A stretch of DNA of 64,000 nucleotides, taken from positions 1 through 64,000 of the forward strand of contig QPGO01000114.1 of assembly GCA_008632985.1 (NCBI GenBank), read 5' to 3'. The position numbers were made by a program, and so were the translations under genes. This DNA comes from Psammoneis japonica. Taxonomy: Eukaryota. Under the pieces are notes generated by a model. It had not been told where the DNA came from, did not search any database, and worked only from the letters and a program-made list of their open reading frames with translations. Positions within the stretch are counted from its first letter, which is position 1; every line of letters starts with the position of its first letter. Shown here one piece after another: positions 7,531 through 56,570 of the stretch.

Positions 7531-9888
7531 AGTGTCTAAGGAAATTGTAAACACAGCATGGCATAGTTTTCATTGCATAGATAATTGAAATGTTGTTTAT
7601 AGCAAATGTTACAGCTAATTAGTCACAAAGAAAGCAATGGGAATGACTCACTGGCGGTCTTTCTCTGCTGACGGTTCTGCTGTTTCCTTGTCTGCAGGAG
7701 TCTTCAACAGAGAAATAGAAGATGCATTATTTACATCTCTAAGGAGTCGGCTGAATGCCTTCCTTCCTCTTGTTTCTGGCACAGCTGTGGCCTTGATGGA
7801 TTAATGGGATCTCCTTTGAGCAAGTCACGACAGTGTGGCGCGGTGGAGGTGTCACCATGCCCAGAGTCTTGGTGGCTCAAAGCTTTACTGTAACAAATTT
7901 CCATTGGCCAATGGGCCTCGTTTCCAACTCATAGAAAGGGAAGTAAAGGAGATTCATCTATTTCTGCTCATATTCCAGCATCATACCGTCTTCCGCAACG
8001 CCGACTTGATTGAGAAGATGAGAGGCGCCAGAGCACTCGTCTCGAGCTTTTTCACCAGTGTTGAGACTAGGAACCACTTCTTTCCCACCTGAAATGTTGT
8101 ATGACGATTAGTTTCTTGGACGTGATTGACAAAGACTCGAATGCGGTGTTAATATCCCTTTTGAGGGCTTCCAGGTTATTGTTGGCGGCTGCCTTCGGAG
8201 CTGCTGGGATGCCCAAAGTGGAGTTGTCATTTCCCGTCTCCTGCATAATGTGATGGCGATGTTTTTGCACACATTGTTGGTAATGGCATATAACAGCAAT
8301 AATGCGCCGAAACATCGGCGTTGAACACATTACTTTCGACAAACGACATCGTCAACAGCAGCGGCACTCACCATTTTGTTTTGTCGCGGTGAAAGTGTGG
8401 AAAAATTAGTTTTTTGCGTTGGCCTGCAGCAGTGATATACAACATATGTACATTGATATCTGTGGTATAACGTTAATATTTCTACGCTACTATGTCGCCG
8501 AAATAAGCACCGTGGCGCAGGCGATTTTGACAAATTCGGCCGATTCCCGACGTAGAGCCACGCAGGCATGTGCCAGTGTTCCGGGAACCGGCCGTCGCGT
8601 TCCCGGAGTGAGCGATGGAGCGATGCACATGACATGGCACTGGAGGGTCATTTCTGGCTTGTAGAAATCTACACGTTGTCTGGCATTGAAATTCAAAAAG
8701 TAATGTTGAACCAACAGCGTTCCCGATCCATTCAAAAACACCGAAACATCACTCCCTCATTCATTTCGTTCGTCAAGACATGGAGAGTGTGCGGCATGGA
8801 ACCATTTCCAAACAAGCTACATTCTGTTCTTCTGTCTCTTCTCACTTGAAAGGCATGTTTACATCGAAAGCAGTGTTGATGCATCATGCATTTGCAGCAC
8901 CAGTGTGAGGATTTTTAACCTGACAATGTCATTCTCCATCTCCATCTTTCCCATGCAGACATGCAGTGCTGCACCTCAAGACACACAGCACCTCAAGAGA
9001 CTCCACAAAGTGTGTTGTGGGTTTTGTTTCTTGTTGCCTTCTGATCTGCAAATGAGGTTTGAGACACAACCTGAACAATTTTGGGTCGTGGTTGTCGGGA
9101 ACGACTTGCACCTCATCAATTTGGGGCTGTCGTCAGAAGACCGCACACTTTGTGGTGACGAGGTGTCAACGAGTTTTGCAAACTCAAGACGTGCAGCACA
9201 GTGCCTCAAGAAATGCAGCACCTCAAGACACCATCACGGAACACAGCACATTGCACCTCAAGTTCGTCTCATTTCTTGTCAAGTGGTGCATGACTGTCCT
9301 CTCTGTGCTGCAGCAAGGTTGCGGTGTGCGCTGGATGAGTTGAGACAGTGTCTCAAGAAACACAGTGCCTCAAGACACCATCACGGAGCATGGTGCATTG
9401 CACTGCGAGAAGCAAAACCATTCATTTCGTTCGTTGACGACAATGTGTTGGTGTGACCTGTTGAGTTCTCGCAATCTTTTTTAGAGCAAGTGGCACTCAT
9501 CCATGACACTGTCTGCTGAGTGTCACAGGACTGTCCGACGCGTTCCAGCCCCAGGTGGGACTCCTTGTGACATTGGGCCCGTAGAATTCTACGTGCGAGC
9601 TCCGTAGTGCGAGAATTTAATCAATGGACACATTTATCTTCAACATCAAATAAACGGCCAAGTTTGTGGTGCAATTGTGCCTCTTGCCACTCGACGTTTT
9701 TGCAACTTCGCCTGCCCCACGCGATTCTTAAGACATTGTAGAATCGCGCTGCAACAAAAAATGTCAAAAGTTGTTGGACGGATCGCTCAACAAGTGCACC
9801 GTAAAATGACACAAAATGTCGAAAAAATCACGCAGAAATCTACGTGCGCGACATGCGACGAGACTCAAAAAACTGTCGATGTCACAGT

Positions 9889-12188
9889 TCAGCAGCACGA
9901 GGTCCCACCTAGACCTGGAACGCGTCGTCCTTTGTTTTGCATGTTGAGTTCCTCGATCACCTGCTTCCGAATCGTCGCTCGCTCTTTCTCGCGACGGCCT
10001 TGCTCCAATTCTGATTCAAGTGCTTTCACCTTCTTGCTGTCTTCATCCGTCTCGCTGCGGACTTGATCCAATTCCTTTGTGACGTTGTTCAATTTTGTGC
10101 GTTCTTCTTCATGCATGACCTTGCACTCACTCTTGCNNNNNNNNNNNNNNNNNNNNNNNNNNNNNNNNNNNNNNNNNNNNNNNNNNNNNNNNNNNNNNNN
10201 NNNNNNNNNNNNNNNNNNNNNNNNNNNNNNNNNNNNNNNNNNNNNNNNNNNNNNNNNNNNNNNNNNNNNNNNNNNNNNNNNNNNNNNNNNNNNNNNNNNN
10301 NNNNNNNNNNNNNNNNNNNNNNNNNNNNNNNNNNNNNNNNNNNNNNNNNNNNNNNNNNNNNNNNNNNNNNNNNNNNNNNNNNNNNNNNNNNNNNNNNNNN
10401 NNNNNNNNNNNNNNNNNNNNNNNNGAATGTCCGCATTGAGCTTGGCAATCTCGACCTGATGGCGCTGCTGCAATTCCGAGGAAACTGCTTCAAAGGTTTC
10501 AGAAGCTTGCACTGTGCGGTTGGTGGATTGCTGGACAGGCGGAAAAGACTTGTGCGGCAGAGCTGGGTTTGTGTCCGAAAGACGTCGGCGTTTTGCTGTG
10601 TCAGTGGGTCGGCGGTCCACAGCATCCAATGCGGCAATGGCTTCATTGCCCATGTCTGAAGAAAGCCTTTTGTGTGGGTCTTGACTCTTTGTGTTCTTGT
10701 GTCGAGCACGACGAAGGCGTTCGGGGGTTAACACCTTCGCGGCCATCATGAGCGAAATGCCGCATGCGCGATTGCCATGGTTGGTGCACTGTTTCCAGTC
10801 CTTGAATTCGCACAACTGTGCAATGTGCTTCACACTCCGATGGCAGTCTTTCCCAATGGCTTGTTTGGGTTGAACTTGCAGGGCAGGTTTTTGAGATCCC
10901 ATTCGCGCTTCTGCACCTTGCTCAGCGGGCCGCAGAAAACGCGAACTTGATCAGGATGCGACCACTTCCGCAACTGATCAAAAATCTTGACAATGCAAAC
11001 AGGGTCATGGGGGTTCTCAACACATTCAATGAGCCCCTCTTTCTCGGTGCGTCCTTTCAGATTTGACAATGACAACTGGTGTGTCTTGTCGATGTCAATC
11101 ACAGAGTTGAGTCGCTGCATGCCAAAGAACTCGGATTGCTCATCATCAACAACGTCTTGATGGAATTGGTCCCACACAGCTTCGGAGACCTCTGCCACTC
11201 CACGAAAAAGGAAGCCATGAGCAAACCAAAACGCAAGCATCTCTTGACAGTGAGAGGGATCCTTGCAGGGCTTGAGCCCACCTTCCACAACTTTCACCCA
11301 AAGCTTTTTGTCGCCCTTCCAATCAAATTTTGCAGCGTTCTTCCCAACTCCAAAGGTGGGATCGCTTTCTCGCAATTCCTTCCATCTCTTCTTGCAGTTG
11401 TCGGCAAACTCTCCTTTCCCATTGAAGTCTTTCTTGAAGTCACACTTTGTGCATTTGCGATGGAAGGTTCCAAAAAGCGTCTTCATGCATTGCCCAAAAG
11501 CAGATGGTTCAAGGGCTTCTCCGGTGGGTGGGTTTTTCCAAGAGAAGAACACCAAGTCGCAACATTTCATCAGCACAAGGCGTTTCGGCTCACTCTTCTC
11601 TCCGCCAACCTCATTGTAGAATCGAAAATCCACGAGGAGACTGTCGCTCATTTCCGTCGGCACTTGCTCCAGAAGGCATTGCATCTTGTTTCCGCCTTTC
11701 TCTCGAATGGCATTGAAAAAGCGCATCTCGAGGTTGCAGGATTTTCGTTGGTGAGTCGTTTCTTGGCCTGCAGCAGCTTCCATCAATTTGCGATCCTCAT
11801 CCGAAACATTGAGGACGCTCTTGTCCTTGGCAATGACAGCTGTGGCAAGGGCGAGAGTCTGTCTGCTGGCTGTTGGCGAGGTCGTTGGAACAGTGGTTGT
11901 GCCCGAATTTGCTGCTGCGCCAGGATTGAACATTGCGGCCTCGGTGGGGTTTGCTGTGTGTGGCTGTCGGTTGACACCGACAGCAAGGTGGGCTTGCGGC
12001 TCCATCTCCACGGAAGCATTTTCTTGAGCCGCCCCCCCAAACAATTGAAACAATGCACTGGCTGCATCCAATGCATTCTGTGTCAGCACAAAGTCAACCT
12101 CTTCACCCTGTGAAAATGCGTCGTCCAAGTTTCGGCGCTCCGAAGGCGCAGTGCTTGAAGCAACAGAAATGTCGTCTCGTGTGTCCAT
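9889..12188 (-). mobile_element. Degenerate tyrosine-recombinase gene, Crypton-like DNA transposon; frameshift near 10835, crosses an assembly gap
   Basis: Catalytic-motif order: FLFRG..E (Arg I), DKT, ENPHDPVC, KPLGKTAI, TNHGNRA (HxxR), ARHKN..SQDPH (His/Tyr box with His at the expected Tyr). Confidence 0.7.
10137..10424. other. Assembly gap (288 N)
   Basis: Run of n. Confidence 1.
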
Positions 12189-16740: not shown

Positions 16741-19303
16741 CAAATGTTTGACAACAACATCAATGCATCCTCGTGAAAACACTTTTCTGCTTTCACTTGC
16801 AGTGTGGTCCAAGAGTGATTCCCGCTGTGGGGATGGATCATTTTCTTTTGTGTGGCCTGGGTGACAAGTGGCAAGAGTGACAATTTTCAAATCTCCGCAT
16901 GACAGACGGACACACTTGTTGTAGAAGACATGGCCTGCCTGCCTGTCTGCCCACCTTTGTGTCTCAGATGTCTGCATGAGCCAGGGGTCATCACACACTC
17001 AGCCCTGGATGCACTTGAGCCGCTGGCCTGAAATGTTGATGTCATGCGCACATTTTGATCCAGCCGCTGTGAAAAGCCAATGACTCCGGCAGCAACAAGC
17101 AAGTTTGTTCTCAACAGGACATTGCAGCACTCTCATGTGTTCTTTCCTTCATTGTGACATGCAACTTTTTTGTTTGAAATCAATCCAAAACATCTTGTTT
17201 TCCACTTGCAAATGTGCAGGACCATTGCAGAATCCCACATGTTGCCAGTCCAAGTTGCAACTCATTCGAAGTTTCAGTTGCCCAAACATCCCCATTTCAA
17301 CGGATTTGGGTCAAGGTGAAGTTGTTCAATTGTTTTGAAAAGAAGTGCAGCAAAATTGGGACAAGAGCACTGCTGTTGATGCCTCCGATCATTGGATGGA
17401 TGCCGGAACATTCATTGTGAGGTGAGCACTCGAGGGCAAGTTTCGCGGCATTTTCTTTTGTTTTGCTCTCAAAACAAATTGTTCTCAACATCTTTGTTGT
17501 TGGGGTGAAGTTTTCTTGCCTGTTCTTTTGGAAAGAATGAGAATCAGAAGAGCAGCAAAGCGCAGACAAAAATTTTGTTGTGCAAATCAAACGTCTGAGG
17601 AGCCACTCCCCACCAGCAAGTGGCACCACTTTCTAAGACAGACCAACACAAGAGCCCTGGACAACCAGTTCGGATGTGTGTTGCATTGACAACAGATCTC
17701 TAAGAGGCACTGCATGCCTTGGAGACTTTCTTCTGCTGCTTTGGCTGGACAAGCACTGTCCGTCGTGACCTCCAGCCCAACAGCTTCCGGCATCTCAAGC
17801 ACTTGTTGCACTGTGCTTCCAGCTCCAATCACCCACAATCATTAAAATTTGGGACTCATGACAAGACACAGTGAATTTGATGACAACATGTGACAAATCT
17901 TCTTGCAGCAGTCCAAGTGGATTTGGTTGTCAAGATGAGCAGCTTGCAAACAACTTGAAGGCGGGTCTGTGTTTGTTTCTGTTCACATGAAAGCACCCAT
18001 GCAAAAGCACCCTAAAAAGCCAGACACCTCAGCCCATCATCTTCCATGAACACACAAGTGAACAGATGTGATTGCATCCAATGCACTTGGACTTGAACAT
18101 TGGAAATGGCGTTGCCGGTTGATGCACCTGTGGCAGAAATTTTGGCGGAGAGCAAAAAAGTGTCAGCAAAAGTGCGACAACTGACAGTTCGAGCGGCAAT
18201 CGCCTGATGACATCCTTCCCACAGGATCAATCAAGACATTCCTTGTGGGCTCACCAATCAAATTAAAACATTGACGAAGTTGCAACCGAGCAACCAACAT
18301 TGTCCACTGCATGTTCTTGCCACAGAAAAGCATGAAGCAAGGCGGTGCTTGACCAACCAGCACGAATGTCAGGTGACTTCATTCACACCAAATCTTTCAT
18401 TGAATTGTTCAATGAATGTGTGGACCTTTCATGAACTTCAGCTGCAGAGGCATTTGCAACCTTCAATTGGGATGGAGGCAACAACAGCAAAAATGCACGA
18501 GAAACAGTGATGTGAAAAATAAAAGCATCTGAAGGAAAAATTCGAGTGGCAATCGCTGCGCCACATGATGCTTTCAATGGGGTTTAGAAAGACTCTGCAG
18601 ATGCAATTGCCACTTGATTGTCAACATTGATGCCACCACAAACAATTTGCTCACCTTGGTTGAAGTCTTTTTTCTCGTGCAAAAAGCATGAGAATTGTGG
18701 GGTGGCAGACAAACGTGCAAAAAAATGTTTCAGTCAAACATGGCATCTTTTGATTGAATGTCTCCGGCCATTTGCCCAACTCAGACAGCTTTGCTTAAAG
18801 CTGGACTGTCTGAGTTGGGCACACAGGGACATTGAACCACCACACTTGGTTTTGTGACTGACTTTTAAGCTGCTTGTGAGTTGAAACAAGTGCAAGATTT
18901 GGCGGGTGACATCACTCCCTCCACGAGGAGGCAGCACGTTGCAGGCGTTGTTGTCATCATTTTTTTCATGCTCTGCACTTGCTGGCAACTGCATTTCCAT
19001 GCAATGCAATGTCTTGCAATGACAAGGAAAATGCCCCGATTGCTTGTTGAGCTGGCAAGTTTTTCTTTTTTGGTGTGTGCCACGTTTCAACCAGCAACAG
19101 CACTCAGTTGCAACAGTCTGTTGCACACATGATTGTGCTGTTCTTGTGCTCCACTGTCTTTGCTTTTTTGGCATCAGACGACCCAAAAAGTTCTCATGTT
19201 GAAGTGCTGGAAGATGAGCATCCCCCAAAAGAGGTGAAAGTGGAAAAAAGACTTGTGGTGATGGCAAGGCTTTTCATGCTGGCAGACTGGGTGCCATTTT
19301 CTG

Positions 19304-22520: not shown

Positions 22521-22669
22521 AACAAAGTGCTCCAGCTTCACTCAGACAAATGCAGGAAGCAAGAAAAAGGTGAACGACAACGCACCTTGGGAAAAAGGAA
22601 ATGTTCGCAAATGTTTTTTAAGCATTGTGAGTGCTCCAATGAGCCAGCTGCAATGGCATGTCAACCCAT

Positions 22670-24900: not shown

Positions 24901-24999
24901 CATCAGACAGCTTGTTGGACTTCCGGCGAGGTTGTTTCAGGCAGAATTTTTGCTTGACTTCTCTTTCATTGTTCAAATGTTGCCAATGCTTTTGGGGCG

Positions 25000-40470: not shown

Positions 40471-40499
40471 TGTCTCCAGCATTGAACTACCGGGTGCGA

Positions 40500-42417: not shown

Positions 42418-43295
42418 CGCAGGACCTTTCTTGGCTTCAGAGAGGCCCTGTCTGATGTGGCTGCCTCCATCCGGTCCATGCAGTGGAGAGAGGTGAAAAA
42501 AAGCAATGAACGAGTTAGGAAGATGATGCGGAAAGAAAAGGAGTGGAGATTGTTTGACTCACAATGGGATGAACGGACGATTTTTTGACATGATCTTCGG
42601 ATCCGGTCTGCATTGCATGGAGACGAGAATGCAAGCATTGAAAGAATGAGAAACATGACACAAAGAGAAAAGGAGTGGACGTGATTTTTGTTGAAAAGTC
42701 CGTCACTCACGATGGGATGGATTCACGAATTTCCGTCGAGACCGGCGCCTTGTTGTTTTCTTCGTGTGAAAGCTTCATTGCAGTGAGATGCAGTCTCTTG
42801 TGCAATGGGGTGCACAAAGATGTCGGAGGTTGGCAGCAACATCAACAGCAACAGAGACAAACAGACTTGTCAAAGTCATTCTCTTGAGATTGTGGCAAAA
42901 GTTCGTTGGTGATTTTGAAAAAGCAACTTGTTTTCGGCTAAATGAATCAACGAGTCTGGGTTGTGGTCGTGTTCTGTCTGCAACCAAATGGCGTTGAATC
43001 GTGACTGTCATGACCCAACAAGAGTTCTTGCAAATCACATGGGAAATGTTGCAAGACTGAAGCCTGTGCAATGGAAAGGAAAATTGTGACCTGCTTTTCG
43101 AGGAGTCGAGGCGCATTGCGTCAATCAGAGGTCCGCAACATGACTGGCTGAGACGACGTGTCGAAATGCTGCGAAGAGGGAACAATGAGGAAGAGCTCAA
43201 TCGGTTGGCAGTCGAGTTGATGGGCTTGTCACATGAATCCGGAGTCCCCTGCGCCAGAGTGCATGACTCCTCGAACTTCGTAAGACGAGTTTACA

Positions 43296-43470
43296 GTGAG
43301 TGGTCCCGACGATGTCCCCGCAGCTCACCCCGAAGTCATTGATCTCACGGGAACCGACAACAAAGTCATTGATCTCACCGAAGCCGACAACGAGGTTGCT
43401 GATCTCACCGAAAGCGATGACCAAGAGGATGAAAGAGAACAAGAAGCGACGGAAACCAGACAAATGACAT
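43296..43470 (+). pseudogene. Coding fragment with three tandem SUMO-interacting-like motifs
   Basis: VIDLT, VIDLT and VADLT at 30-bp spacing, followed by an acidic tract. Confidence 0.4.
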
Positions 43471-44949
43471 CAGTTCTCTCCACTGGAGTGTTTGTTGCAA
43501 TCTGTGCCAACTTTCATTGTGGACAGTTTTTGTTGTGTGGAGTGGCGGTTTTACATCCTTTTTGCCATGCGAAGTGGGCTCTCTTGTGCTCCAATGTCAT
43601 TGCGCATTCCGTGGCGTCTGGCAACAACTGTCAGGACCGGGGTTTTACACCGGTGTTGCAGCCGACCACCCGAGTCCAAAATTGGTTGACATGAGTGTTC
43701 ATCATTTGTCATTCCATCCGGATCTCTAGGGCCGCTGCCAGTTTGAATGCCTTGGCCGGGACACAAACATCTCTGTGGGATCTAGGCCATTGCAGAGAGA
43801 TCTGAGCAGCAGCCACAGCCAACATTGGCCATTGTAGATCATCAGCGATGAGGTTGAGAGTTCAAGTCATTGGAATCGGTGGCCACTCCATCCCCGTCGA
43901 TCCACATTGTCACCGTCGTGCTCAGTCATTTGATCCAGTGGGTCAATGGTCCACTCTTGGTCTGACTCAATGCTTTCACTGTCACGGACCGGATTGACAA
44001 ATTCACCTTCCTCTGTCCCTTTGCCTGATCTCCAACCTGCGCCACTCTCGTCAGACAAGGATCCGCCTTCAACCGGTGGACGACCTTTTTCTTTTCCACC
44101 AAAACTAAAAAAATGTTGCTTCCGTGAAATAAAAGTTCAATGAAAAGTGCTTGCGAGGACATCACTGTTGGACAAGGGGCATTCGATGCCTTCGTGGTGG
44201 TGATTCAAGACGCACCTTTTTTGTTTTCGACCAACGTGCTCCTGGGTTTTGCCCGTCTGCTGATGAGCGGTCGCTGCGGTGAAGTTGTCGAACCACCAGC
44301 AGCATTGCAACTGCCACGACAGACAAGACTGTCGCTGCAACATGCAGTGCCCAATCAATGTTGCCCTTTCCACCACCTTTGCTGCAGACCGGCGCTGTGA
44401 AGGAATCAATGTCTTTGGAAAGCTCTTGAATGTATGAGCCGTGCTGTTCTTTCAGGGACAGCTCAATCGCCATTTTTCAATGCGTTGAAAGCATCGATTG
44501 TTTCTCCCTGGACTCTGATCTTGACATGCAGAGCCGCTTGGGACAGGTGTCGGAACGACAAGTGCACAATGCCATCACTTTCACTGTCTGGCTCATGCAG
44601 AAACTGCGAAACGACAAGAACGTCGTGAATGACGTGTGCCTCCACCGGCAACTGCCGGTTCAAGACGGTCTTGGCAGCATGGTCAAAAGCTGCCTTGTCG
44701 GTTGAATCAGTCAGCTTTGTAAGAATGTCCGCAAAGAGGAGTGTCAAGTCGACAGATGCCTCATGAAATTCTGCAGAATTGGCTTTGGTTGGGCTGGGAA
44801 TGCTTTGCTTGGGATGGAGCGGGTGTCAAGGGGGCTGTTGAAATTGTTGTTTGGTGGGTGAAGACGGATGCAGGCTGGGTGCTGCAGATGGATTCGACAA
44901 ATGGCCTTCCTCACTGGCGCTTGGTGCTGAAGAAACAGTCTCAACTCCA

Positions 44950-45990
44950 GAAGGCGCGTTTGAAGAACCCGCAGTGTGCATGATGCTGACGGTTGGTTGA
45001 GGATTGGCAGATGGAAAAGCACTTGGTGAAAGCTCATCGTCGGAGAAGCACTGAATGATGGAAAACCACTGGGTGCCGGGCTGCTCGATGGAGCTTGTGT
45101 TGCGACATGGTTGCCTGCCCACAGCATCCATTTTGTCGACCCAATTGCGTTGGAGGGCGCCACACATGTGAGACACTGGCCATTGGCTTTGCTTTTTCTC
45201 CCAAAAACAGGTTCGTAACATCCAACAGGACAAGCAATGCCCTCACACCCACAGCGATTCGGTTCAAGCCCAATGATGCTGAGCACAGCACACAATGCCG
45301 GCAGAATTTCACCCACAAGACCAACGCCCAAGACTCGGAGAACTTCCAACGGAAATGCACCGAAGCATTGAGGAATCTCGCCATTGATGGATGTGTTTCC
45401 CGAAATGTCAAATGCAAGGAGCTTCGTTGGTTCAGGAATGAGAGAACGTCGGGAATTGAACCGGAGAAGTTGCTTGCTGCCGATTCCAGATGAGTTCTTG
45501 CTCCCAGGATGAGGTCGGAAGGATCCCTGAAAGCCTCTTGTTAGAAAGATCAATGCTGGTGATAAAACTGTTTGCATCACAGACAACACCTGTGAAATCA
45601 CAGCAATTGTCAATGGCGGGCCATTTGTGAAAGCTCTTAGACTGGTGGTGTCCCACATTGTTGGAGTCATCAAGGGCATTTGGGGCCTCAATTTGGTCGA
45701 GTTCCTCGGGAGTCCAGGTTGCAGTCGTCGTGGGTGCCAGAAGACTCTGTGCTGCACTCGGCATCAGAGCTTGCGGGAGTGGCAGTGGCTCGCACACATC
45801 ACCTTCGCAGCAGACTGCTGAAAGCAAGCCGGCCTCAACCTCAGTCAAATTGGCATCAACCAAGGGGTCAGCAGGCGGTGCAATTGGGGCATGTTCCGAA
45901 AATGTGCCATGCCAACATCCAGTGGGATCATCCATCCATTCTGTTGTCTGTGGCTTCGCGAAGCGCAGATCCGCCTTTTCCATGTCTCAA
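44950..45990 (-). pseudogene. Decayed leucine-rich-repeat receptor-like gene
   Basis: CDFTGVVCDANSFITSIDLSNKRLSGILP; FDISGNTSINGEIP; GLVGEILPALC; GCEGIACPVGCY. Frameshifted. Confidence 0.7.
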
Positions 45991-46986
45991 GAGAATTCCC
46001 ATGACTTTGATTGCACCAGGCCTGCCGAGTGTCAGGGCATTTCAGCTTGAATGCATTCAGTCTGGTGCTTCTAATCCGGGTCTGACTACAAGCACTTCCA
46101 CCATGTTGAGCGTGCGCGTTGGAGGGAGTTTTTCCAAATCAAACTGTCGCAGAAGTCTACGTCTTTTTCGCACTGTGCTGACCAGTCGAATCATCATTCA
46201 GCAATTGCAGCAAACCACCAAAATGGCATGGGTTCAATCGCTGAGAGCCTGTTGACTGCTGCATCGTTCTTCCACCTGAGTGAACGAGGCGCAGATGTCA
46301 TCAGTGAAGTCCGTGCGGGTGCTGCTTCCTTTCTGATGCTGAGCTGTCGGCTCTGTTGCTGGCACACCTGCGGATTGTGGCTGAAGCTGGTGTTGATCAC
46401 GATGACGCAGTCTTTTGCTGTGGCACTTTCGGCTGGAGCCGCTTGTTTTACTTTTGGATTTTTAGGAACCTCCCCTTTGCCTTTGTGCTCCGGGAATTGG
46501 TCTCAGCGCTTTTCTAACTTGTGGACTGGTCCAAACCAATGACTTCACACTTGAACAGGCACATGATCAATTTGGCAGTGGTCGGGAATTCTCCTTGCGA
46601 CAACTGCTCTTGTGGGCATCACTGATGAAAATTTGTCCCAGAAGCGATCAAGCACGCAAGCGTTGTTGACTTGATTGGCGTTGCAGCAATGCCTCGAACG
46701 ATTCTAGCCGTGTGCAGCATGAAATCGAAGATGACAGCGTTGGCGATGAGGAACTTTGTGACTGTGACGGCCACAACGATGTCTGGGCCATGCCGAACAA
46801 GGACGGCAAGTCGAGCAAAGATGACAACAGGGTGAGTGAGTCAGCTGCTGTGACTGTCAGACACGACAAAGAGAGCAACACAAATGCTCAGGAAATCAAG
46901 AGAAAAGAGCTCAAGCTGGGCTTCGATCATTCCCCAAAGCCGGATGATGTGACCCCGGACTCTCCTGCTGCCCGTTTTGCTGCTTT

Positions 46987-47634
46987 GGTTGGCACTCCAT
47001 GGGGCCAGTGACGCATTGACATTAGATCGGGAAATTGCATTGAAAAGCATCAAGTGGGATTGGCAATCACTCAAGTCTTCCCCAGATCAATTCAAGTGTC
47101 AAACAGGACAAATTCAGGTTTGTGGATGACTCCTGGAAGACGAATCGACTCATTGTGCTAGAAGCAGTGAAATGGCATTGGAAATTTGCTTCACAGCGCT
47201 TCGCATCCAGTGAGGGCTGACCACGAGATTGTCTTGGAGGCAGTCAAATTGAACAGGATGCATTTGGCGTGCGCCTCAACAGAACTTTGGGCCAGTGCTG
47301 ACATTGTTGTGGAAGGGGTCCGTCAAAATGTGAAAGCTTTTGAGTTTGCTGCGGAGCATCTGAGAGGCAGCCGAGATGTTGTTTTGTCTTCTGTCAAGCA
47401 TGTCCTCGGTCCAGCTTGCCTTGACCCTCATGTGCTTGCCTCCACCATGCGGACGTCCAAACACTTCACACTTCCCAAAGAAACCGAAAGACTGATTTCG
47501 ACTGTCACTGCTGGCATCTGGTGGCAGCATCATGATCGAGATGGGGTTGGAGCCTTCACTTTCTGCTGTGCAGCCAAAGCAGACAAAGAAACCGCTGCAC
47601 AAAACTGCATGGAACGAGTGTGGAAGCATGACCT
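46987..47634 (+). pseudogene. Hypermutated partial copy of the DUF4116-repeat gene (homologous to 62192-62885)
   Basis: Direct nucleotide alignment, e.g. tgagggctgaccacgagattgtcttggaggcagtcaaattgaac is identical in both. Two internal deletions. Confidence 0.95.
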
Positions 47635-47635
47635 T

Positions 47636-47937
47636 GGGAAGCCATCTCATTGCCAAAGCAGGGAGGGACTCGAACATGCAGCACATGCACAACAAACACT
47701 TTGGTGAAGGAAGAAATGGCACAGCACATTTTGGATGAAAATCCTTTCATGAATCTTTTTCTTGTCAAGTCTGGTGTGTGCCCACCTGGACTTCAAAGGG
47801 CAGGACTCGATGGTGTTGAAAGAACAATGGTGCGGAGGTTTGAGTCCAAGTGATGAGGCAGCAGACCCCATGGAATTTTTCATTGCTTTTCATCACCAAG
47901 TTCCGCAAGACCTGGCTTCCTTGCCTTGACAATGCTT
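47636..47937 (+). pseudogene. Hypermutated C-terminal fragment of an NSUN/Nop2-family RNA m5C methyltransferase (homologous to 52632-52892)
   Basis: GGTRTCSTCTTN..EE vs EGTLTYSTCTIN..ENEE; aligns at nucleotide level to the 52.6-kb copy. Confidence 0.85.
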
Positions 47938-48005
47938 CAGTTTTTATGCCAAACAAGAACTGGCACATTGTGCTGCTGGAAGATGTCAACCTGCACAATT
48001 CTTCC

Positions 48006-49350
48006 ATGGAGCATTCGGTGGTGACTCGGTCTCAGTGGACCCATCGCAACGCACTCATGGCTGGAATCATTGTGGTGGTTTTGTGTGTCATCATCATCAC
48101 CATTGCTGTCTTGGTTCCGGGTGGTTCTTTGAATGGCAACAGAGCCGCGCTCACAGACAATGGTGTGCTCAAGGTGGAGCTGATCAATGCGCATGATCAC
48201 TCCGATTTTCACTCACTTGACAAGAATCAACTCGATGTGAAGGATTCTCCGCAGAACAAGGCGTTTGAATGGCTTCGCTGGCATCCCAAGCACAATTCGT
48301 TGACGCACGCGAAAAAGTTGCAACTGTTTGCTCTGGCTGCTTTTTGCTGCTCGACGAACGGTGTCAAAATGGCACACAGCAAAGATGGGCCCTCCTGGAA
48401 GAATGCTCGTGATTGGCTCTTGTGCAATGAAACCAAGTGCATTTGGCCAGGATTGTTGTGCAACGACGAGGAAGAAATTGCCAAGATTTCTCTACAAGAC
48501 AATGACTTGATGAGACGATTTCCACCCGAAATGATTTGGTTGACTGAGTTGAAGTGCATCGATGTCACCACCAACAAGTTGTGTTTGGAAGGACCCAACG
48601 CACTCAATGTGCTGGGTGTTTTCAAAAACTTGCATGCCCTTCAAGCCGATGACAACTGCATTGTCACCAATGGTGGTTTGCCTGAGAGTTTGGGAAACTT
48701 GGTTGAGCTAAAAAAGTTAGTCTCATCATGCAACCTCATGTCGGGACCACTCAACAATGGCGTTCTGGAAAACTTGGGCAAACTGACGCACTCGGAAATC
48801 GAGTCCAACTTTTTGACGGGAGCCTTTCCGGCCATGATGGGAGAGTGGGACAATTTGGGTGAGTTTTTTGTTTTTGGTTTCTGTTGAAATTGCCATGGGT
48901 TTCATGCTGAACAAGAGCCAATGCATTGCACCGTTCTACTCTCACCACAGTTTGTCTCTGCATGAGGCAAAACGCCCTCACCATGGATTTGAGTTGGTTA
49001 AAAACGCATGAGATGGGGAATCTCTTTGCACTTTGGTTGGGTTCCAGCAATGTCAAAGGAGGAATTCCCACCAAAATTGGACAATTGACGGAATTGGCAT
49101 CCCCTTTGCTTGCCCATGTGGGTTTGGGTGGGGTGTTGCTGTCCAAGATTGGCAATTTGACGGGTTTGCGGCATTTCTGGATTTACACCAATGGCATTGG
49201 CAGAACCGTTCCCAAGGAAATTGGGATTTGAAGCAATTGGAGAATTTTGAAACCCATGACAATGCATTTTGACAAAAAAAATCGCTCACTGCGGATTGCA
49301 AAGAGGCGACGTGTCCCACGGACACGTGCTGCACAGAGTGTTGGCAAACT
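48006..49350 (+). pseudogene. Decayed diatom-type transmembrane LRR protein gene
   Basis: TM helix, SPQNKAFEWL, LQLFALAAFCCSTNG..W (from ALA.fYYsTnG), C.WPGLLC, LRRs (LPESLGNLVELKKL, IPTKIGQLTEL). Probable intron near 48860-48950; later stops. Confidence 0.75.
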
Positions 49351-49859
49351 GCTGCAGTGGTGGAGTCGGAGCTGCGCAATGTTGTTTTAGAAGAAGGATG
49401 CACAATGCTTGCAAATCATCTTGCTTTCAGAAATGCACTCAAACTGACAATGAAGAGAGCGCATGGTTCTGCACCCTTTTGCAGTCAGACTGCGGCACTT
49501 GCAATCTGCTCCCAGTGCACCACCAGCTTCACATGTGCTGCTCCACAAAGTGGGCGAAGTGATGTGTGCTGCCCAGTGCGACACCCCAGCCAGAGAGCTG
49601 CAGCAACTGTCATTGCATGCTGATCAAGCCCTTGCATTGGAAGAGTTGGCACAAAAACCCCACAGCAGTCTTTTTGTTGTGCTTGAGCACTGCAGCACTT
49701 TCTCTCTGACAGATTTGCTCAAGGCTTCTCTTGGGGAGCTGAGACTTGATCTCAAGCTGTGATGCAATCCAGAGAGTGGCATGCTCCTGAGCTGCTTCTT
49801 GCTCTTTCCTCCTTTCATGCAAGGCTTGTCTGGCACAGCTTTGCCCCCCAGTCACTTCA

Positions 49860-51200
49860 TCCCCATGCCAGGAGATGAGAGTTGAAGCTCCCAACTCCAG
49901 AGTGAAGGGACACCATGATGCCACCAATCAACACAACAAATGCAGGCTGAGGGCATTTTGGCTCTCTGATGGGGCCAAGGGAGCACTTTGAGAATGGTGG
50001 CTGCATGTTCCACAACTTGTGTGGTGCAGTTGTGGCTCCCACAGTTGCTTCATCTACATGTCAGAGTGAGAGCTGACACAAGGCTCCCAACTTGAGAGTG
50101 AAAGAGAACACCCTGACACCAACAACCAACAGAGCAGCTTCAGGTTGAGGGCACTGCAGGTTGCTGGTGAAATCCAGGGAACAATTTGAGGGTGGTGTGT
50201 TGCAAGGCTTGTCTGATGCAGTTTGGCTCCCAGCCACTTTTTCCCCATGCCAGGATGAGAGTTGAGGTCCCAGCTCCAGAGTGAAAGGACACCAGGGAAC
50301 ACTTTGAGGGCAGTGACTGAGTGTTGCAAGGCTCATCTGGTGTGCAGTTTGGCTCCCAGTCTTTTTTCCATGCCAGCATGAGAGTTGAGGTCCCAGCTCC
50401 TGAGCAAAAGGACACAGTTGTGTCACCATCCAACACAACAATTGCAGGCTGAGGGCATCAAAGGTCCATGGGGTGGAGCCCAGGGAGCACTTTGAGAAGA
50501 ATGGTGTTTGAGTGTTGCAAGGCTCATCTGGCACACTTGTGGTCCCCAGCCACTGGATCCACACCAGAATGAGAGCTGAAATTCCCATCTCTGGGATGAA
50601 AGGACACCCTGGGATGTGACCAACCAACACAAGCTGGGGGCACTGCAAGGGTCTCTTGTGAAGCCAGAGGCACACTTTGAGTTTTGTGGTTGAGAGTTTC
50701 AAAGTCCATCTGGTGCAGCTGCAGCCCCAGTCTCTTCATCCACACCAGCAGAATGAGGAGAGCTTGAGTTCTCACCAACTCCAGAGTGAAAGAACACCTT
50801 GATGCTGCCAGCCAACACAACAAATGCAGACAGAGGACATTGAGGATGTCTGGTGGAGCACAGAGAAGAACACTTTGAGAACAGCAGCCAAGTGTTGCAA
50901 GGCTCATCTGGAACAGCTGTTGCTCCCAGTTGCTTCATCCCCACCAGAATGAGAGCTGAAAAAGCTCCCAACTCTGGAGTGCGAAAATGCCCTGGTGCCA
51001 CCAACCAACACAAAAACTGCAGGCTGAGGGCATTGAGGGTCTCTGGCAAAGCCCAGGGAACACTTTGAGAATGCTTGCTGAGTGTTGCAAAACTCCAATG
51101 GATGAGTGATCCAAAAGGCTCCTCCTTCCAGTGCAGGTGTGCCCCCAACAGGCGCTTCATGCACACCAGGATGAGACTTGGAGCTCCCGCAACAACCTCC
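49860..51200. repeat. Degenerate tandem array, ~190-bp unit, ~8 copies; one inverted copy at ~56270-56420
   Basis: Recurrent tgagag(t/c)tga...ccagagtgaa...caacacaa...gctgagggca...cactttgag...gtgttgcaaggctcatctgg. The segment ccagatgagccttgcaacactcaa at ~56287 is its reverse complement. Confidence 0.85.
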
Positions 51201-52594
51201 AGATTTAAATGGCAGCCCAATTTCGCTGCCTCAGACACCAACTTTGTGCAGCTCCAGCTCATCAAAATTCTTGTGGAGCTTGATTTAAGGTCATTGAGCA
51301 GCATGGGAGGAGGGGGGGGTGTCTCAGTGTGGTCAACCACTTTGAGCATGGACTCAGAGGTTGGTCTGTTGCTTGAGAGCAAGGCTGCACTGCCTTTTGG
51401 ACCCAGACTTTGCACAGCCCCAGCATCAGAAGCCATGGCTTGGAGCCAAGCTTGCACAGCTTGGGGGAGGGTTGCACTGCCTTTTGGACCCAGACTTTGC
51501 ACAGCATCAAAAGCCATGCTTCCTGGGGGGGGAGTTGAGGACACAAAAGCAGTCTGGCCCACTTTTTGATCTGGTCTTGTTGAAAGTTGAATGCAGCCAA
51601 TTTGAGCCCAGGTGCACATGAAAAAAGCATGGGTGTGTCTTTTGAAACACATGGCAACATTGTTGGGGGACAGAGATCCAGCATCAAAGAGAGAGTGCAA
51701 GAAAGACACATCCAAACAGACTCAGGCTGGTGGTCTCCTTGCCAAGTGCAAGGGTGAGCAGCCTCACTGCAGCCAGAGCATTGAGAGAGCAAACAACAGC
51801 AAAAGAGCTCTCAACTGACACAAGGAGCTCCGGCTTCATCTCAAAAAGATCCAAGACAAAGTCAACAGCTGCAGCCAAAAGCCACGTGTGACACCTTGCA
51901 CTCATGTCAAGGTGCAGGATGAGGAGCAAAGGTGCAGCGGGCAGATTGCATCTGCCTGTCTTGATGCGATTTCATTTCAAGAAATTCTCTTTCCGAGCTG
52001 ACCAAGACTGATGGAGGGCAGACGCATCCCCTGAGAAAGCTCCAAAAAATGAAAATGGTGGGGAGACCGCTGAATAACGGGACAAAAGAGACCGAGACAA
52101 CGGAAAAGGCCAACCCTGCTGACCGACACTTGAACCTGTGTGTGCTGCACAGCTTCCCTTGGCTGCTGCTCATGCCATTTTATTCCCAGTTCTTGAGCCA
52201 GCCAACCGCATCCGCGTCAGCGTTTGGTTTCATGATGTTGTGTCACCCAAAACGATGTTGGGTGGACGCGACTGTCGTGCTGTGAGACGTCTTCGGATAT
52301 TTTTGTTTAGGCTATTGTGAGTTACACAAATTGGTGGATAAATACAGGTCATAAGTACTACAAAAAATCATTTGCTGCCGTCAATAGAAATCATGTAACT
52401 CGGCTACCTACTGTGAGTGTTGGGAGGTTGGGCATAAACGAGGAATGACTGTGGCAATAGTCAATACTCTTGATCCGTTGCTAGGTATGTGCTCTATTCC
52501 TCGAAGTGGGATTGTCGTAGACAAGAGTATGATGTATGTATTCTTGTTGAAACGACTCTCGACTCTCGACAAACTGTTCTTACTGGCTACTCGT

Positions 52595-52892
52595 TTTTCT
52601 AAGCATTCAAACTACCAAAGGCGTTTTGTTAGGGAAGCCGTCTCATTGCTAAAGCAGGAAGGGACTCTAACATACAGCACATGCACAATAAACACTTTGG
52701 AGAACGAAGAAATGGCACGGCACATTTTGGATGAATATCCTTTTATGAATCTTTTCCTAATCGAGTCTGGCGTGTGCCTACCCGGACTTCAAAGGGCAGG
52801 ACGACTCGACGGTGTTGAAAGAACAATGGTGCGATGGGATTTGTCGTCGCCAAGTTCCACATGACCTGACTTCCTTGCCTTGACAATGCTTC
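52595..52892 (+). pseudogene. Unmutated C-terminal fragment of an NSUN/Nop2-family RNA methyltransferase
   Basis: YQRRFVREAVSLLKQEGTLTYSTCTINTLENEEM (motif VI, YSTC). No N-terminal part; internal deletion relative to the 47.6-kb copy. Confidence 0.8.
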
Positions 52893-53604
52893 GCGTCGAG
52901 AGGCTTCTTCGGATACTATCTTTTAAGTGCACAAGCGACATGAAGCCGCACTGCCAAGGAAAAGTCTGTTTACATGTTTCTCTACCTAGGAGAAGAAGTG
53001 ATTTCGGTGCGACTTATGATCTGCAACAAGCCAATAAGAACGACGTGGGAGGGAGAGACTCAAAATCGTCGAGAGACTAGGCCTAGCGTTTTGTTGGGCG
53101 GCTTCAATTACTGCTTTTAAGAGAATGTGTTCGTATGCCGTTCTTTGACATTTCGATATGGCTGATATTGTAAAGATGGTGCCTTGTTTGTTGTAAAGGT
53201 GCAAGAGACAGGCCTATCTAAGCCCTCTCCACCAGAGAGTGAAGATCCTCATTCGCCCGAAGTTAGAGTCATTGGATGCGGTTTGTAGAAGGTCTATAAA
53301 AGAGGCGTGAATCCGCATGCGAGCATGGAGTGTAGGTAAACGTTACAAATTCTCTTGCACTCTCTCTGTACTGCCTCTAGAGGGAGATGTACTCTCTTGA
53401 TAGTGTTAGCAGTAGGGAGTAGCAAGCGAGTCTTCTGGTTCCAGTGTAGTGCTGCTGGGTTCCGTCCCGGGGCTGCAGATAGAATAGATAGAATAGAATA
53501 GAAGTAACTCTACGCACGAGCACCATAGCAAGATAGAGAGCAGGCGGGTTTGGCGCCACGACCATAAACGAAAAGTGCAGGATTTCTTCAGGTGCTAAGT
53601 ACAG

Positions 53605-56570
53605 CACATGGTGGAAACAACCCTTCACTCCACCTGCCCCTCAGCACACTCTTCATGTCCCAAAAAACAACCGCAAAGTGTTGAGCACAGTTTGGGTTGC
53701 TTGCTCTCCTTGACTGCAGTTGTGGCAGCAGAGCAGCAGCTGGTTGTGTGCAGAAACCCCTGCGCAGCAGGCAAAGTGTCAACCGACATCACAAATCATT
53801 TCTGCACAATTGCTTGCACTGTCAGCTTCTGAGCACACCCTTCATGTCCCAAGAAACAACCTCAAAGTTTTGAGTGCAGTTTGGGCTGCTTGCTCCTTGA
53901 CTGCAATTGTGGTGGTGGCAGCAGAGCAGCGACTGCTGGGTGTGCAGAAGCCCCCGAAGCGCAGGCAAAGTGTCAACCCACAGAAAAAGTCACTTCTGCC
54001 AAATTGTTTGCACTTTCAGCTTCTGAGCACACTCTTCATGTCTCAAGAAACAACCTCAAAGGGTTGTGCACAGTCATTTGGCTTGCTTGCTTGACTGCAA
54101 ATGTGGCAACAAAGCAGCACTTGGGTGGGCAGAAATCCCTGCAGGCAAAGTGTCATCCCACAGAAAAGTCACTTCTGCCAAATTGTTTGCACTTTCAGCT
54201 TCTGAGCACACTCTTCATGTCTCAAGAAACAACCTCAAAGGGTTGTGCACAGTCATTTGGCTTGCTTGCTTGACTGCAAATGTGGCAGCAAAGCAGCATT
54301 TGGGTGGGCAGAAATCCCTGCAGGCAAAGTGTCATCCCAAAGAAAAAGTCACTTCTGTCAAAAGGTTTGCTGCATTGGCTTCTGTGCACCTGGGTTTGGG
54401 CAGAAATCCCTGGAGCAGGTGTAAAGTGTCAACCCACAGAAAAAGTCACTTCTGCTGAAAGAGTGTTTGCAGCCTTGGCTTCTGAGCATGCTTTCAATGT
54501 CCCAGGAAACAGCCTCAAAGGGTTCTTGGGCACAGTTTGGGTTTCTTGCTTGTCTGCAAATGTGGTGGCAGAGCAAAATCTGGTCAAGAGCAAGAGAGAG
54601 GCCTGGTGGAAAAAGTGTCAGCAGTGTCAGCAGATGAGCCACCTTTGCCAAATTGTCTGCACTCTCAGATTTTGAGCACACTCTTCATGTGACAAGAAAC
54701 AACCTCAAAGTGTTGAGCACAGTTTGGGTTGATTGCTCTTCTTGACTGCAGTTGTGGTGGCAGAGCAGCAGCTGGGTTTGCAGGAACCCCCGCAGCAGGC
54801 AAAATGTCAGCCCACAGCAAAAGTCACTTCTGCCAAATTGTTTGCACTTGCAGCTTTTGTGCAAACTTTTCATGTCCCAAGAAACAACCTCAAAGAGTTG
54901 GGAACAGTTTGGGCAGCTTGTTTGACTGCAAATGTGGCAGCAGAGCAAAAGCTGGGCAGGAGCAAGAGAGGCCTGGCTGGTGGAAAAGGTGCCGGCAAGC
55001 AGAAAATGTTGCTTCTGCCAAATTGTTTGCACTGTCACTTTCTGAGCATGCTCTGCATGTCCCAAGAAATGACCTCAAAGTGTTGAGCATAGTTTGGGTG
55101 GTTTGCCAGTCTGCAGCTGTTGTGTCACATCAGCAGCCTCTGCTGGGTGGGCAGAAATCCATGCAGGCAAAGTGCCCACCCATGGAAAAAAATCATTTTT
55201 GCCAAATTGTTTGCAGCCTTGGCATCTGAGCACAATCTTCATGTTCCAAGAAACATCCTCAAAGTGCCGAGCACAGTTTGGGTGGCTTGCTTCACTTCAG
55301 TTGTTGTGGTGGCAGCTCAACTTCTTTGCAGAGCCCAGAAAAACCTTTTGGCAAAGTGCCAGCCAGCAGAAAAATCACTTCCACAAATTGCCCACACTCT
55401 CAGCAGCTTCTCATCACACTCTTCATGCTGAGTTGTTTTTTTTTTGTTCCACCAAATCACGATTTTTTTTGCTGCCGGCCCTGCCACCAAGAGTGCTCTG
55501 CACATTTTGCACAAAATGGCAGCCACATGCCATCACACTCACAAGCCCCACACAAATTCAATCTGAATTTTGCCATTGGTGCACTGCAGCTGGAAACCAC
55601 AGGGAGGAAGCAACCACCTCACCATGATGACAGCTCTGTGATGGTTGCCATTTTCACAATGGCATCACCACCTTGAAGAGAGCCACAACAACCGACAGTG
55701 TGTCGTGTCTCATGTGGGCCAATGTGCAGCACAATTGACATGTGAAAGTGCACAGGCTTGTTGTTGACTTGTGCAGTCAAAAAGCAACCATGAAGGGCAA
55801 AAAATTGAATGTTTCAGCTTTTTGCACTGTGGTCAATCAACTCCAAAGCAGAGCGAGGCGCGTGCCTGTGAAATTGATGACACGAACTGTTGACATGTGT
55901 CAGTGTGATGGTGAGTTTGCGGTGATCATTGATGGAGCACATTGCGTTTTTGGTTGCTGTTTTTATTGTGTTTTCACAAGTCAGGAAAAATTTGAAATGT
56001 CAAACACTGGTGTTTGGAGTTGTGCTGCAATTGTGCACAGGCTCTTCACACACTCTCAACAGTGTTTTGTGTGCAGAGTGCTCACATTTTCACACACGGC
56101 AATTCAATGAATGAACAACACATTGGCATTGATTCATGAAAACAACATGCATTGATGTCCACATGCAAACACTGGGCTTGTGGCCAGAAAAAAATTGATT
56201 TTCAGCAAAAAAAAAATGGGCAGGGCTTCAGCTTTTGTTCTGGTGCCCGTGGCATGAATGAAGTGAGGCTGTGGTCCACAGCTGTGCCAGATGAGCCTTG
56301 CAACACTCAACCACTGTTCTCAAAGTTCTCCCCAAGTTCCACCCCAGACCCTCAATGTCCTCATCCTGCAGCAGTTGTTGCACTGGTTGGTCGCACCAGG
56401 GGGGTTGTGCTGCTCGCTGGGGGCACTCAACAGAGTCCAAACATGCACCTCACACAAAGCCAGTCTTTTCACAAATGATGCTCACTGCTGAACACACAGC
56501 AACCAAAAGGGTTCTTTGTGTCACATCATGGATGGCAGCCATCACACTTTAGAAAGGTCTTGCTGGATGG
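53605..56570. other. TpA-depleted domain 3
   Basis: TA is dense up to 53600, almost absent until ~56550, and normal from ~56655. Confidence 0.85.
53640..55400. repeat. Tandem array, ~180-190-bp unit, ~9 copies
   Basis: cttcatgtc(c/t)caagaaacaacctcaaag-like core at ~53652, 53841, 54034, 54213, 54493, 54683, 54869, 55054 and 55237. Two adjacent 179-bp units are nearly identical. Confidence 0.9.

Follow-up and report, generated by a model that had tools for sequence, protein, structure and literature searches.

Near-saturating loss of TpA in three domains of a diatom contig, bearing the signature of a regionally targeted A:T to G:C hypermutation process

Following up an earlier note, we analyzed positions 1 to 64,000 (forward strand) of contig QPGO01000114.1 from the diatom Psammoneis japonica (GenBank assembly GCA_008632985.1), a 64,000-nucleotide stretch hereafter called the window, in which three domains totaling ~41 kb have lost almost all of their TpA (TA) dinucleotides and carry TpG (TG) or CpA (CA) instead. 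We consider it very probable that a genuine mutational process left this mark, one that is confined to TpA, targeted by region, and akin to that reported for the chlorarachniophyte Bigelowiella natans. The explanation that best fits the whole, a TpA-specific process acting on DNA in place and most likely by adenine deamination, is in our judgment probable, and on adenine deamination as the chemistry, taken by itself, our confidence stands about midway. What is new here is that such a process now extends to another major lineage, where it has come far nearer saturation, and that its mechanism can be constrained.

Composition was measured in sliding 1-kb windows and as domain totals, and is given as observed/expected (O/E) ratios. 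The composition domains, which carry no strand, are laid out as follows.

8917 to 33468: TA-depleted domain 1; TA O/E 0.05 (totaled over 8870–33300), CG O/E 0.41, TG/CA O/E 1.7; right edge between the TAs at 32518 and 33469.
10137 to 10424: run of N within domain 1.
18867 to 20911: longest TA-free stretch, a gap of 2046 bases.
33469 to 38559: gene island of normal composition; TA O/E 0.67, CG O/E 1.09.
38560 to 52074: TA-depleted domain 2; TA O/E 0.07 (totaled over 38600–51900), CG O/E 0.58; edges at 38559 and 52075.
52075 to 53600: island of normal composition, 1.5 kb, between domains 2 and 3; TA O/E 0.72.
53601 to 56549: TA-depleted domain 3, mostly tandem array; TA O/E 0.02 (totaled over 53600–56400), CG O/E 0.14.

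All 37 of the 1-kb windows internal to the domains had a TA O/E of 0.23 or less (range 0.00–0.23, median 0.04), and the domain totals of 0.02–0.07 compare with 0.56–0.72 in the four gene-bearing stretches of the window. TG and CA were correspondingly raised (O/E 1.5–1.9 in the domains vs 1.0–1.24 in the gene-bearing stretches), while CG, on whose depletion the earlier note laid no stress, was also low and varied strongly among subregions. The earlier note, made from the sequence alone, had described just such TA-depleted, TG/CA-rich domains beside normal genes, and these measurements bear it out, as they do its observation that TA is absent from 18868–20911: the longest gap is bounded by the TAs at 18866 and 20912 and spans complex sequence, with no microsatellite or simple repeats; were TA present at its normal density (42.8 per kb), such a gap would have a chance of 9e-39. 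The domain edges are abrupt: at 33469, 38559, 53600, and 56550, sequence with a TA every 5–60 bases gives way to 500–950 bases that have none. Neighboring genes are spared, as the note had also held, and so is the AT-rich intergenic sequence at 33501–34500 adjoining domain 1 (TA O/E 0.95); the depletion is therefore not a general trait of non-coding DNA. Two small pockets inside the domains keep their TAs (9 in 260 bases at 9482–9739, and 5 in 71 bases at 40457–40527, beside a gene fragment described below), which may reflect more recent insertion or local protection of the DNA.

Read support was examined using Logan contigs from one sample, the public run X1, which is possibly the source sample of the assembly. 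X1 contigs matched TA-free sequence at 18524–18922 and 18894–19451 (jointly 18524–19451), 22577–22869, 29509–30145, and 32832–33650 with 0 differences, at word depths of 60–69 (59.6 for the contig on the gene island). The depletion is therefore present in the reads and was not made by an assembler or polisher, and where the earlier note had asked whether reads might show TA in place of the assembled TG or CA, those of this one sample gave the same TA-free sequence. The longest X1 contig reaches 315 kb, and the X1 reads are therefore accurate. On one 20-kb stretch, we noted a total of 3668 X1 contigs of mixed likeness (581 at ≥99% identity, 781 at 95–99%, 1360 at 90–95%, and 946 at <90%), and the run therefore holds many diverged look-alikes of the domain 1 sequence. 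Where these contigs depart from the window, transitions predominate (251 A>G, 231 C>T, 213 G>A, and 231 T>C, with 29–53 in each transversion class), and three CA/TG double differences occur among the 40 rows of such mismatches listed for other X1 contigs. Summed word depth was ~200–4000 in domain 1 vs ~60 in the gene island, a figure that is not a copy number and was not used as one. A second run, X2 (on record as 'DNA?'), gave nearly no cover of 18001–33341 and did cover 33342–38000; it was not used for or against silence of the domains. No run recorded as RNA is listed for this DNA.

The direction of change could be read from sequences that exist in the window in both a depleted and a normal copy, found by self-BLAST (46987–47634 with 62192–62885, and 47636–47834 with 52632–52833), and from proteins with relatives elsewhere. 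The features concerned are the following.

46987 to 47634, forward strand: DUF4116 gene fragment (PF13475), mutated paralog of 62192–62885 with 78.6% identity over 695 columns.
47636 to 47834, forward strand: fragment with 89% identity to its paralog at 52632–52833 in the normal island; only the domain copy is mutated.
61483 to 63114, forward strand: intact DUF4116 gene, the unmutated polarization reference (PF13475, E 1.1e-91; open reading frame (ORF) of 543 aa with 10 Tyr).
40037 to 40482, forward strand: frameshifted pseudogene fragment of the B12-dependent methionine synthase activation domain (MetH; PF02965, E 1.4e-8 and 7.9e-16, in two frames).
19494 to 21236, forward strand: 581-codon open frame, putative Plavaka/KDZ-like DNA transposase relic; 0 Tyr, 34 Cys, and 31 His, with 40% identity to the protein P0001.

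The normal copies have 18 TAs, of which 12 correspond to CA (8) or TG (4) in the depleted copies, 1 is kept, and 5 are otherwise changed; in 47636–47834, all eight TAs of the normal counterpart have been lost, five of them to CA or TG. TG and CA themselves were largely kept (62 of 69 and 53 of 60, respectively). Counted per strand, A->G changes occurred at 12 of 36 adenines after T and at 19 of 372 after any other base (A, 6/126; C, 8/126; G, 5/120; Fisher p = 1.5e-6), which gives the excess of TA->TG/CA over other A:T->G:C transitions that the earlier note had expected. Protein comparisons point the same way. Four Tyr residues conserved in human and E. coli MetH are replaced by His or Cys in the MetH fragment (PAPGY->PAPGH, KY[FY]AV->QCFAV, W[AG]Y->WGH, and [RN]Y[KQ]GI->THDGI), each amounting to TAY->CAY or TAY->TGY, and Tyr residues of P0001 align with Cys or His in the 581-codon ORF (NYHRIL/NCRRIL and FSYQR/CHHVR). 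The polarity of TpA to TpG or CpA, as first proposed, is thus borne by paralogs, by outgroup proteins, and by the array units considered below, which agree with one another.

The same counts bear on error-prone repair, which the earlier note had listed among its candidates: patch repair in heterochromatin by a Y-family polymerase of the Pol-eta type makes A->G errors at WA, of which TA is a hot member. Adenines after A are scarcely affected here in comparison with those after T, AA is enriched in the domains (O/E 1.19–1.40), and transversions at TA are not in excess, all of which leaves the WA-hotspot account highly improbable, and we no longer hold it as a candidate. Two other sources were set aside. 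GC-biased gene conversion would not be specific to TA, and AA/TT is undepleted; the mutations arising from the ultraviolet photoproduct at TA are mainly transversions.

We likewise attach very little probability to an artefact of sequencing or assembly, to foreign DNA intrinsically poor in TA, or to selection against TA. The read evidence comes from a single sample, perhaps that of the assembly, and TA is suppressed by selection in some viruses. Nevertheless, the separately built contigs match exactly at ~60-fold word depth, and fragments of host genes (MetH and DUF4116, the latter with an intact copy in the window) have lost their TAs. Transversions and indels accompany the changes between paralog copies and 17 of the 56 CGs of the normal copies are kept, as in real old divergence. 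As for selection, the O/E of 0.02–0.07 is found in decayed, frameshifted DNA without a plausible selective agent.

A second and separate decay has affected CpG (CG) in the same DNA. Of the 56 CGs just mentioned, 26 are CA or TG in the depleted copies, and per strand C->T occurred at 28 of 111 cytosines before G, compared with 4–8% in other contexts (5/128 at CpA). Pyrimidine-purine steps number 242.7 per kb in normal DNA vs 236.1 in depleted DNA, in which there are 39.6 fewer TA, 30.2 fewer CG, and 63.3 more TG + CA per kb, so that ~57% of the TG/CA excess comes from TA and ~43% from CG. Across the 37 domain windows, CG O/E ranged from 0.00 to 0.89 and was correlated with TA O/E to a limited degree (Spearman 0.36, p = 0.03); the sequence at 41001–42500 combines a TA O/E of 0.00–0.02 with a CG O/E of 0.74–0.83, and at 49501–51000 both are near zero. 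The loss of TA thus outpaces the decay of CpG, is largely uncoupled from it, and is not a by-product of it. In the diatom Phaeodactylum tricornutum, CG methylation of transposons is reported to be maintained by DNMT5a (PMC9998398), and decay of CpG to TG/CA is the expected outcome of such methylation. Decay of 5-methylcytosine (5mC) accordingly resembles the CG component seen here, which is patchy, and differs from the uniformly deep loss of TA; as the sole explanation it was rejected, given that it cannot remove TA and that TA loss exceeds CG loss and is uncoupled from it.

Repeat-induced point mutation (RIP) of ascomycete fungi is the natural comparison, being likewise a permanent, dinucleotide-specific transition hypermutation of repeat or foreign DNA with sharp edges and a plausible role in defence. 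However, RIP makes TpA from CpA, whereas TpA is destroyed here; it creates stop codons, which the TpA process cannot; it mutates both duplicates, whereas here the copy outside the domains is spared; and its enzyme, RID, is cytosine methyltransferase-like and would not explain A:T->G:C changes. A RID-related DNMT4 is reported in 31 of 60 diatoms (PMC9998398). Fungal RIP was rejected on the loss of TA with gain of CA/TG, the low rate of C->T at CpA, and the sparing of one copy in each pair, and the earlier note's separation of this process from both RIP and 5mC decay is upheld.

Evidence on where and how the changes arise comes from a tandem array in domain 2.

40928 to 42278, unstranded: 90-base tandem array of ~14 units (TRF), with TA lost and CpG mostly kept.

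When this array was cut into 14 units, one column read TA in 1, TG in 3, and CA in 10 units, and another was split between CA (9 units) and TG (5 units) without any intermediate form, while the CpG columns still hold CG in most units. Each unit was therefore resolved independently after duplication, in place, on DNA. Internal paralog alignments within the domains (39 high-scoring segment pairs, 17,845 distinct aligned column pairs) show the same exchange: of 729 adjacent double differences, 232 are between CA and TG, compared with 39 in the next most frequent class. Within the domains at large, TG and CA are balanced (2483/2399, 1287/1259, and 323/361 in domains 1, 2, and 3) and their order along the DNA is random (runs-test z of 0.16, 0.64, and -1.30, respectively), which indicates that both strands are equally affected and that neighboring sites are resolved independently; the TG/CA order of the three domains gave no sign of long single-strand tracts of change.

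These observations bear on a further possibility, namely that repeat transcripts underwent A-to-I editing by an ADAR- or ADAT-like enzyme and that the edits were fixed by reverse transcription and re-insertion. ADAR is typically described as preferring a 5' U (bioRxiv 10.64898/2026.01.13.699255), in keeping with the TpA context. Hyperedited retroelements also occur in animals. Against this stand the array units resolved in place, the equality of strands without runs, and the fact that pseudogene fragments and satellites are affected alike. Moreover, the element in domain 1 appears to be a DNA transposon relic, and when the 199 stop-to-stop frames of at least 90 codons that lie in the depleted DNA were compared with Pfam, there were no matches to reverse transcriptase, integrase, transposase, or viral domains, only fragments of host genes (MetH, DUF4116, PhyH, and a leucine-rich repeat (LRR)). 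The order of 3' preference described next is also unlike that of ADAR, and we regard RNA-level editing as very unlikely.

The TAs that survive, 125 in 39.2 kb of depleted DNA, are strongly structured by context. Relative to normal DNA, survival was 0.48 for TTAA, 0.24 for CTAA/TTAG, 0.135 for GTAA/TTAC, 0.084 for CTAG, 0.069 for CTAC/GTAG, 0.043 for ATAA/TTAT, 0.017 for GTAC, 0.011 for ATAG/CTAT, 0.004 for ATAC/GTAT, and 0/79 for ATAT. A model that gives each strand's 5'-T-A-N-3' its own survival factor, with fitted values of 0.73 for TAA, 0.32 for TAG, 0.18 for TAC, and 0.05 for TAT, fits all ten NTAN classes (chi2 4.0 on 6 df), whereas uniform survival does not (chi2 225 on 9 df). From these factors, loss rates stand at ~1 : 3.5 : 5.4 : 9.6 when the 3' neighbor is A, G, C, or T, respectively, a hierarchy of TAT>TAC>TAG>TAA; read instead as T->C, the same data give a 5' neighbor order of A>G>C>T.

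With regard to targeting, the earlier note had proposed a system directed at repeats. In each paralog pair, mutation is confined to the domain copy, and both 62192–62885 and 52632–52833 keep their TA and CG; selection on the intact DUF4116 gene could contribute to its retention of both. Tandem duplications in the normal flank (2980–4018, 85% identity, and 6626–7528, ~72%) have a TA O/E of 0.55–0.69. Since only domain copies are mutated and the flanking duplications keep TA, duplication alone is insufficient for targeting, and location or chromatin state would be a better fit as the target than duplication as such. The restriction to domains thus stands, and the word repeat-targeted was too specific. 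Two further observations on composition may be added: windows over 6501–9000 have raised TG/CA (1.30–1.42) and a CG O/E of 0.70–0.94, and within the intact DUF4116 gene, the sequence at 61501–62500 has a TA O/E of 0.26–0.37 with normal CpG (0.90–0.94) and TG/CA raised only mildly (1.20–1.22). The low TA of this gene may be due to the codon usage of a repeat domain, or may be a faint trace of the TpA process in a multi-copy family.

The closest known system is that of B. natans. In mutation-accumulation lines of this alga, 231 of 302 nuclear point mutations are reported to fall in integrated regions of a 186-kb giant virus and a 25-kb virophage, and 230 of these 231 to be A->G or T->C, all at TpA, arising de novo at ~6e-7 per site per generation in only some of the lines; TA O/E is given as 0.45 in the nucleocytoplasmic large DNA virus (NCLDV) region, with a cluster threshold of 0.43 (bioRxiv 10.64898/2026.01.13.699255). 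The two cases share A:T->G:C change at TpA only, clustered TpA depletion with CpA/TpG enrichment, and action on both strands. They differ in lineage, B. natans belonging to Rhizaria and the diatom to Stramenopila, and in degree, since TA O/E is 0.02–0.07 over ~41 kb here, near saturation, compared with 0.45 there. The targets there are viral, whereas here they are a DNA-transposon relic, satellites, and host-gene fragments, with no viral genes found; and the process was seen live there, compared with an accumulated signature here. The separate CpG decay, 3' hierarchy, and strand independence were measured in this work, and the words 'CpG', 'trinucleotide', and 'diatom' do not occur in the main text of the preprint (bioRxiv 10.64898/2026.01.13.699255). 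A full-text literature search for other TpA-specific processes, or for one in diatoms, gave this preprint only, subscription journals being outside its coverage; the earlier statement that no description had been published has been superseded by it.

As to the enzyme, an ADAT2-like protein is proposed for B. natans, by inference (Mettrop et al., bioRxiv 10.64898/2026.01.13.699255), and the same preprint cites DNA activity of ADAT2 in amphioxus. The ADAR/ADAT/TadA enzymes resemble the process seen here in favoring U or T directly 5' of the target A, and differ in that their natural substrates are RNA. The 5' preference is seen in that the target A34 of tRNA follows U33 and that TadA acts within a U-A-C-G loop.

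The base attacked may nonetheless be the thymine. A TET/JBP-type dioxygenase or another thymine-modifying enzyme (forming, for example, 5-hydroxymethyluracil, 5hmU) could act in TpA of silenced repeats, with T->C fixed by mispairing with G or by glycosylase processing. All of our sequence results are symmetric in this respect, TA being its own reverse complement. In dinoflagellates, which belong to the Stramenopila, Alveolata, and Rhizaria (SAR) grouping, 5hmU is reported to be enriched in repeat elements, where it helps silence transposons, and to replace T preferentially in TA and TC (PMC11572971). The likeness, in that repeats of a SAR lineage carry a modified base and that the T of TA is favored, is offset by the facts that 5hmU is an epigenetic mark not known as mutagenic and that it also favors TC, which is undepleted here (O/E 1.02, 1.14, and 0.90 in the three domains vs 1.01–1.12 in normal DNA). 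In addition, the usual partner of 5hmU formed from T is A, and it is not established that T->C follows with any strength. The sole study with de novo data also favors adenine deamination, by inference (bioRxiv 10.64898/2026.01.13.699255). Attack on thymine thus seems unlikely, though of the alternatives it is the one to which we give most weight.

Less likely again is mutagenic turnover of N6-methyladenine (6mA) at TpA in heterochromatin, which would be to adenine what 5mC decay is to cytosine. Such turnover would produce regional A->G changes at one particular dinucleotide, with both strands affected, in parallel with the CpG decay of the same domains. However, the known eukaryotic 6mA motifs are ApT rather than TpA, and AT is only mildly low here (O/E 0.85 in domains 1 and 2 vs 0.83–0.98 in normal DNA); nor is deamination of 6mA to hypoxanthine in DNA an established pathway.

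In the reading we favor, a polynucleotide adenine deaminase, either of the ADAT2/TadA kind or novel, would be recruited to silent or foreign chromatin, where it would deaminate the adenine in 5'-T-A-3' to hypoxanthine, to be read as G, with a 3' preference of T>C>G>A. Each TpA would become TpG or CpA with equal probability, site by site and on either strand, until ~93% of TAs were gone. On the same DNA, a slower and patchier decay of CpG to TpG/CpA would proceed from 5mC on diatom transposons.

Several points weigh against this reading. The process is known here from its accumulated signature alone, and no de novo mutation was observed. Direct polarization at the nucleotide level comes from the 18 TA sites, with the 'normal' paralog serving as a proxy for the ancestor, and in the four scorable Tyr-majority columns of the transposase family, the 581-codon ORF has C, H, V, and W, such that no Tyr is kept and two of the four are not predicted products. 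The read support, from one sample and maybe the assembly's own source, is not independent two-platform proof. In the internal paralog alignments, the same units enter the tally of CA/TG exchanges many times, and the tally hence is not one of independent events. Mutation before insertion is ruled out for the arrays, and dispersed elements may have been mutated in that way. The context hierarchy depends on the 125 surviving TAs, some of which may be new arrivals; the abundance of the CAN/NTG precursors differs less than 2-fold, and new arrivals thus do not explain survival differences of 10–100-fold. TA is palindromic, and every result fits T->C before A equally well. Finally, ADAR favors a 3' G, unlike the T>C>G>A order, and the natural U-A-C site of TadA fits the second place only.

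The coding consequences of the process are distinctive. Under the genetic code, TA->TG/CA makes no stop from a sense codon, while TAG becomes TGG or CAG and TAA becomes TGA or CAA. With TAG and TAA removed, TGA is the sole remaining stop and reading frames are not closed; the domains accordingly contain 199 of the window's 276 frames of at least 90 codons. Inactivation would therefore be by blanket missense, with all Tyr lost and Ile-ATA, Leu, and Val codons shifted, leaving long hollow frames. In the 90-base (30-codon) array, we noted long frames on both strands (for example, 481 codons at 41116–42558, reverse strand, and 313 codons at 40837–41775, forward strand) with no convincing Pfam match; these are most likely artefacts of periodicity and of TAA/TAG loss, which gene predictors could call.

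The 581-codon frame appears to differ from these. Its freedom from TGA over 581 codons has a chance of 2.7e-7, and it is on this ground taken as real coding sequence. It has 0 Tyr and 5.9% Cys, compared with medians of 2.7% Tyr, 1.9% Cys, and 3.2% His among 25 relatives. In 90% clusters, the ORF has one relative, P0001, which in turn has 1128 relatives among 1.84 billion representatives (E<=1e-3), many of 1000–1400 aa. Of 20 P0001 relatives scanned, 11 matched PF18759 (Plavaka) at E<=1e-3, seven of them above the gathering score, and nine had no Pfam match; the ORF and P0001 themselves had none, so the Plavaka assignment comes via the relatives. On this sequence evidence, we interpret the frame as the putative relic of a Plavaka/KDZ-like DNA transposon. 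The P0001 family is large, largely missed by Pfam, and only distantly matched by the Plavaka model. A comparison of the 581-aa ORF with the Protein Atlas gave no usable match, and that of a flank protein gave sub-threshold matches only, which offered no pointer to lineage; a metagenome scan for transposase relatives gave 441 pattern matches with 0 confirmed, and hence no unmutated DNA copy.

Other sequences in the window include further mutated DNA and the genes of the island.

28470 to 28883, forward strand: PhyH (phytanoyl-CoA dioxygenase) gene fragment in domain 1; PF05721, E 1.1e-4, 23.0 bits vs a cut-off of 22.
35428 to 36462, forward strand: OTCase gene (Pfam).
37069 to 38124, reverse strand: gene for a DUF2470 protein (Pfam).
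49818 to 51094, unstranded: degenerate tandem array with TA and CpG almost gone (self-BLAST; CG O/E 0.00–0.06, TA O/E 0.02–0.04).
53640 to 55427, unstranded: tandem array in domain 3 with a unit of ~180–190 bases (TRF, self-BLAST).

The two paralogous fragments at 46987–47834 lie end to end, while their intact parents (62192–62885 and 52632–52833) are 10 kb apart and in the opposite order, which suggests that the fragments were joined by gene-fragment capture by a mobile element, or by local shuffling, before hypermutation. Contigs of run X2 skip 34597–35330 and 35411–35551 with GT..AG ends, as in RNA-like splicing, and the skipped stretches look like a pair of introns lying either within the 5' portion of the OTCase gene or ahead of it. 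Among the 120 OTCase homologues listed, all ten organism-named rows are diatoms with 76–78% identity (Thalassiosira, Dactyliosolen, Ditylum, Odontella, Helicotheca, Discostella (two rows), T. pseudonana, Eucampia, and Nitzschia), in support of the diatom origin already presumed and against an origin in Bigelowiella.

Domains of this kind inflate ORF predictions, hide transposons from homology searches, and bias composition-based analyses of algal genomes. Their occurrence in a second lineage, and one of great ecological weight, argues for a widespread process rather than a curiosity. Any candidate enzyme is constrained to act on DNA in place and on the strands independently, with a 3' preference of T>C>G>A, no dependence on CpG methylation decay, and edges sharp to tens of bases. 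If true, the reading we favor would provide a natural nuclear A:T->G:C DNA editor of interest for genome defence, the evolution of mutation rates, and base-editing technology. More broadly, and here we lean neither way, TpA editing may be an old, chromatin-targeted genome defence across SAR algae, and maybe wider, that mirrors RIP and in diatoms reaches saturation over decayed transposons, satellites, and captured gene fragments; its agent, acting on nuclear DNA at 5'-T-A-[T>C>G>A]-3' on either strand, would then be a DNA adenine deaminase occurring in nature or else a system that modifies thymine with mutagenic effect. Elements would be disabled by blanket missense with their frames left open, and the TA-free 'genes' in algal annotations would be its fossils.

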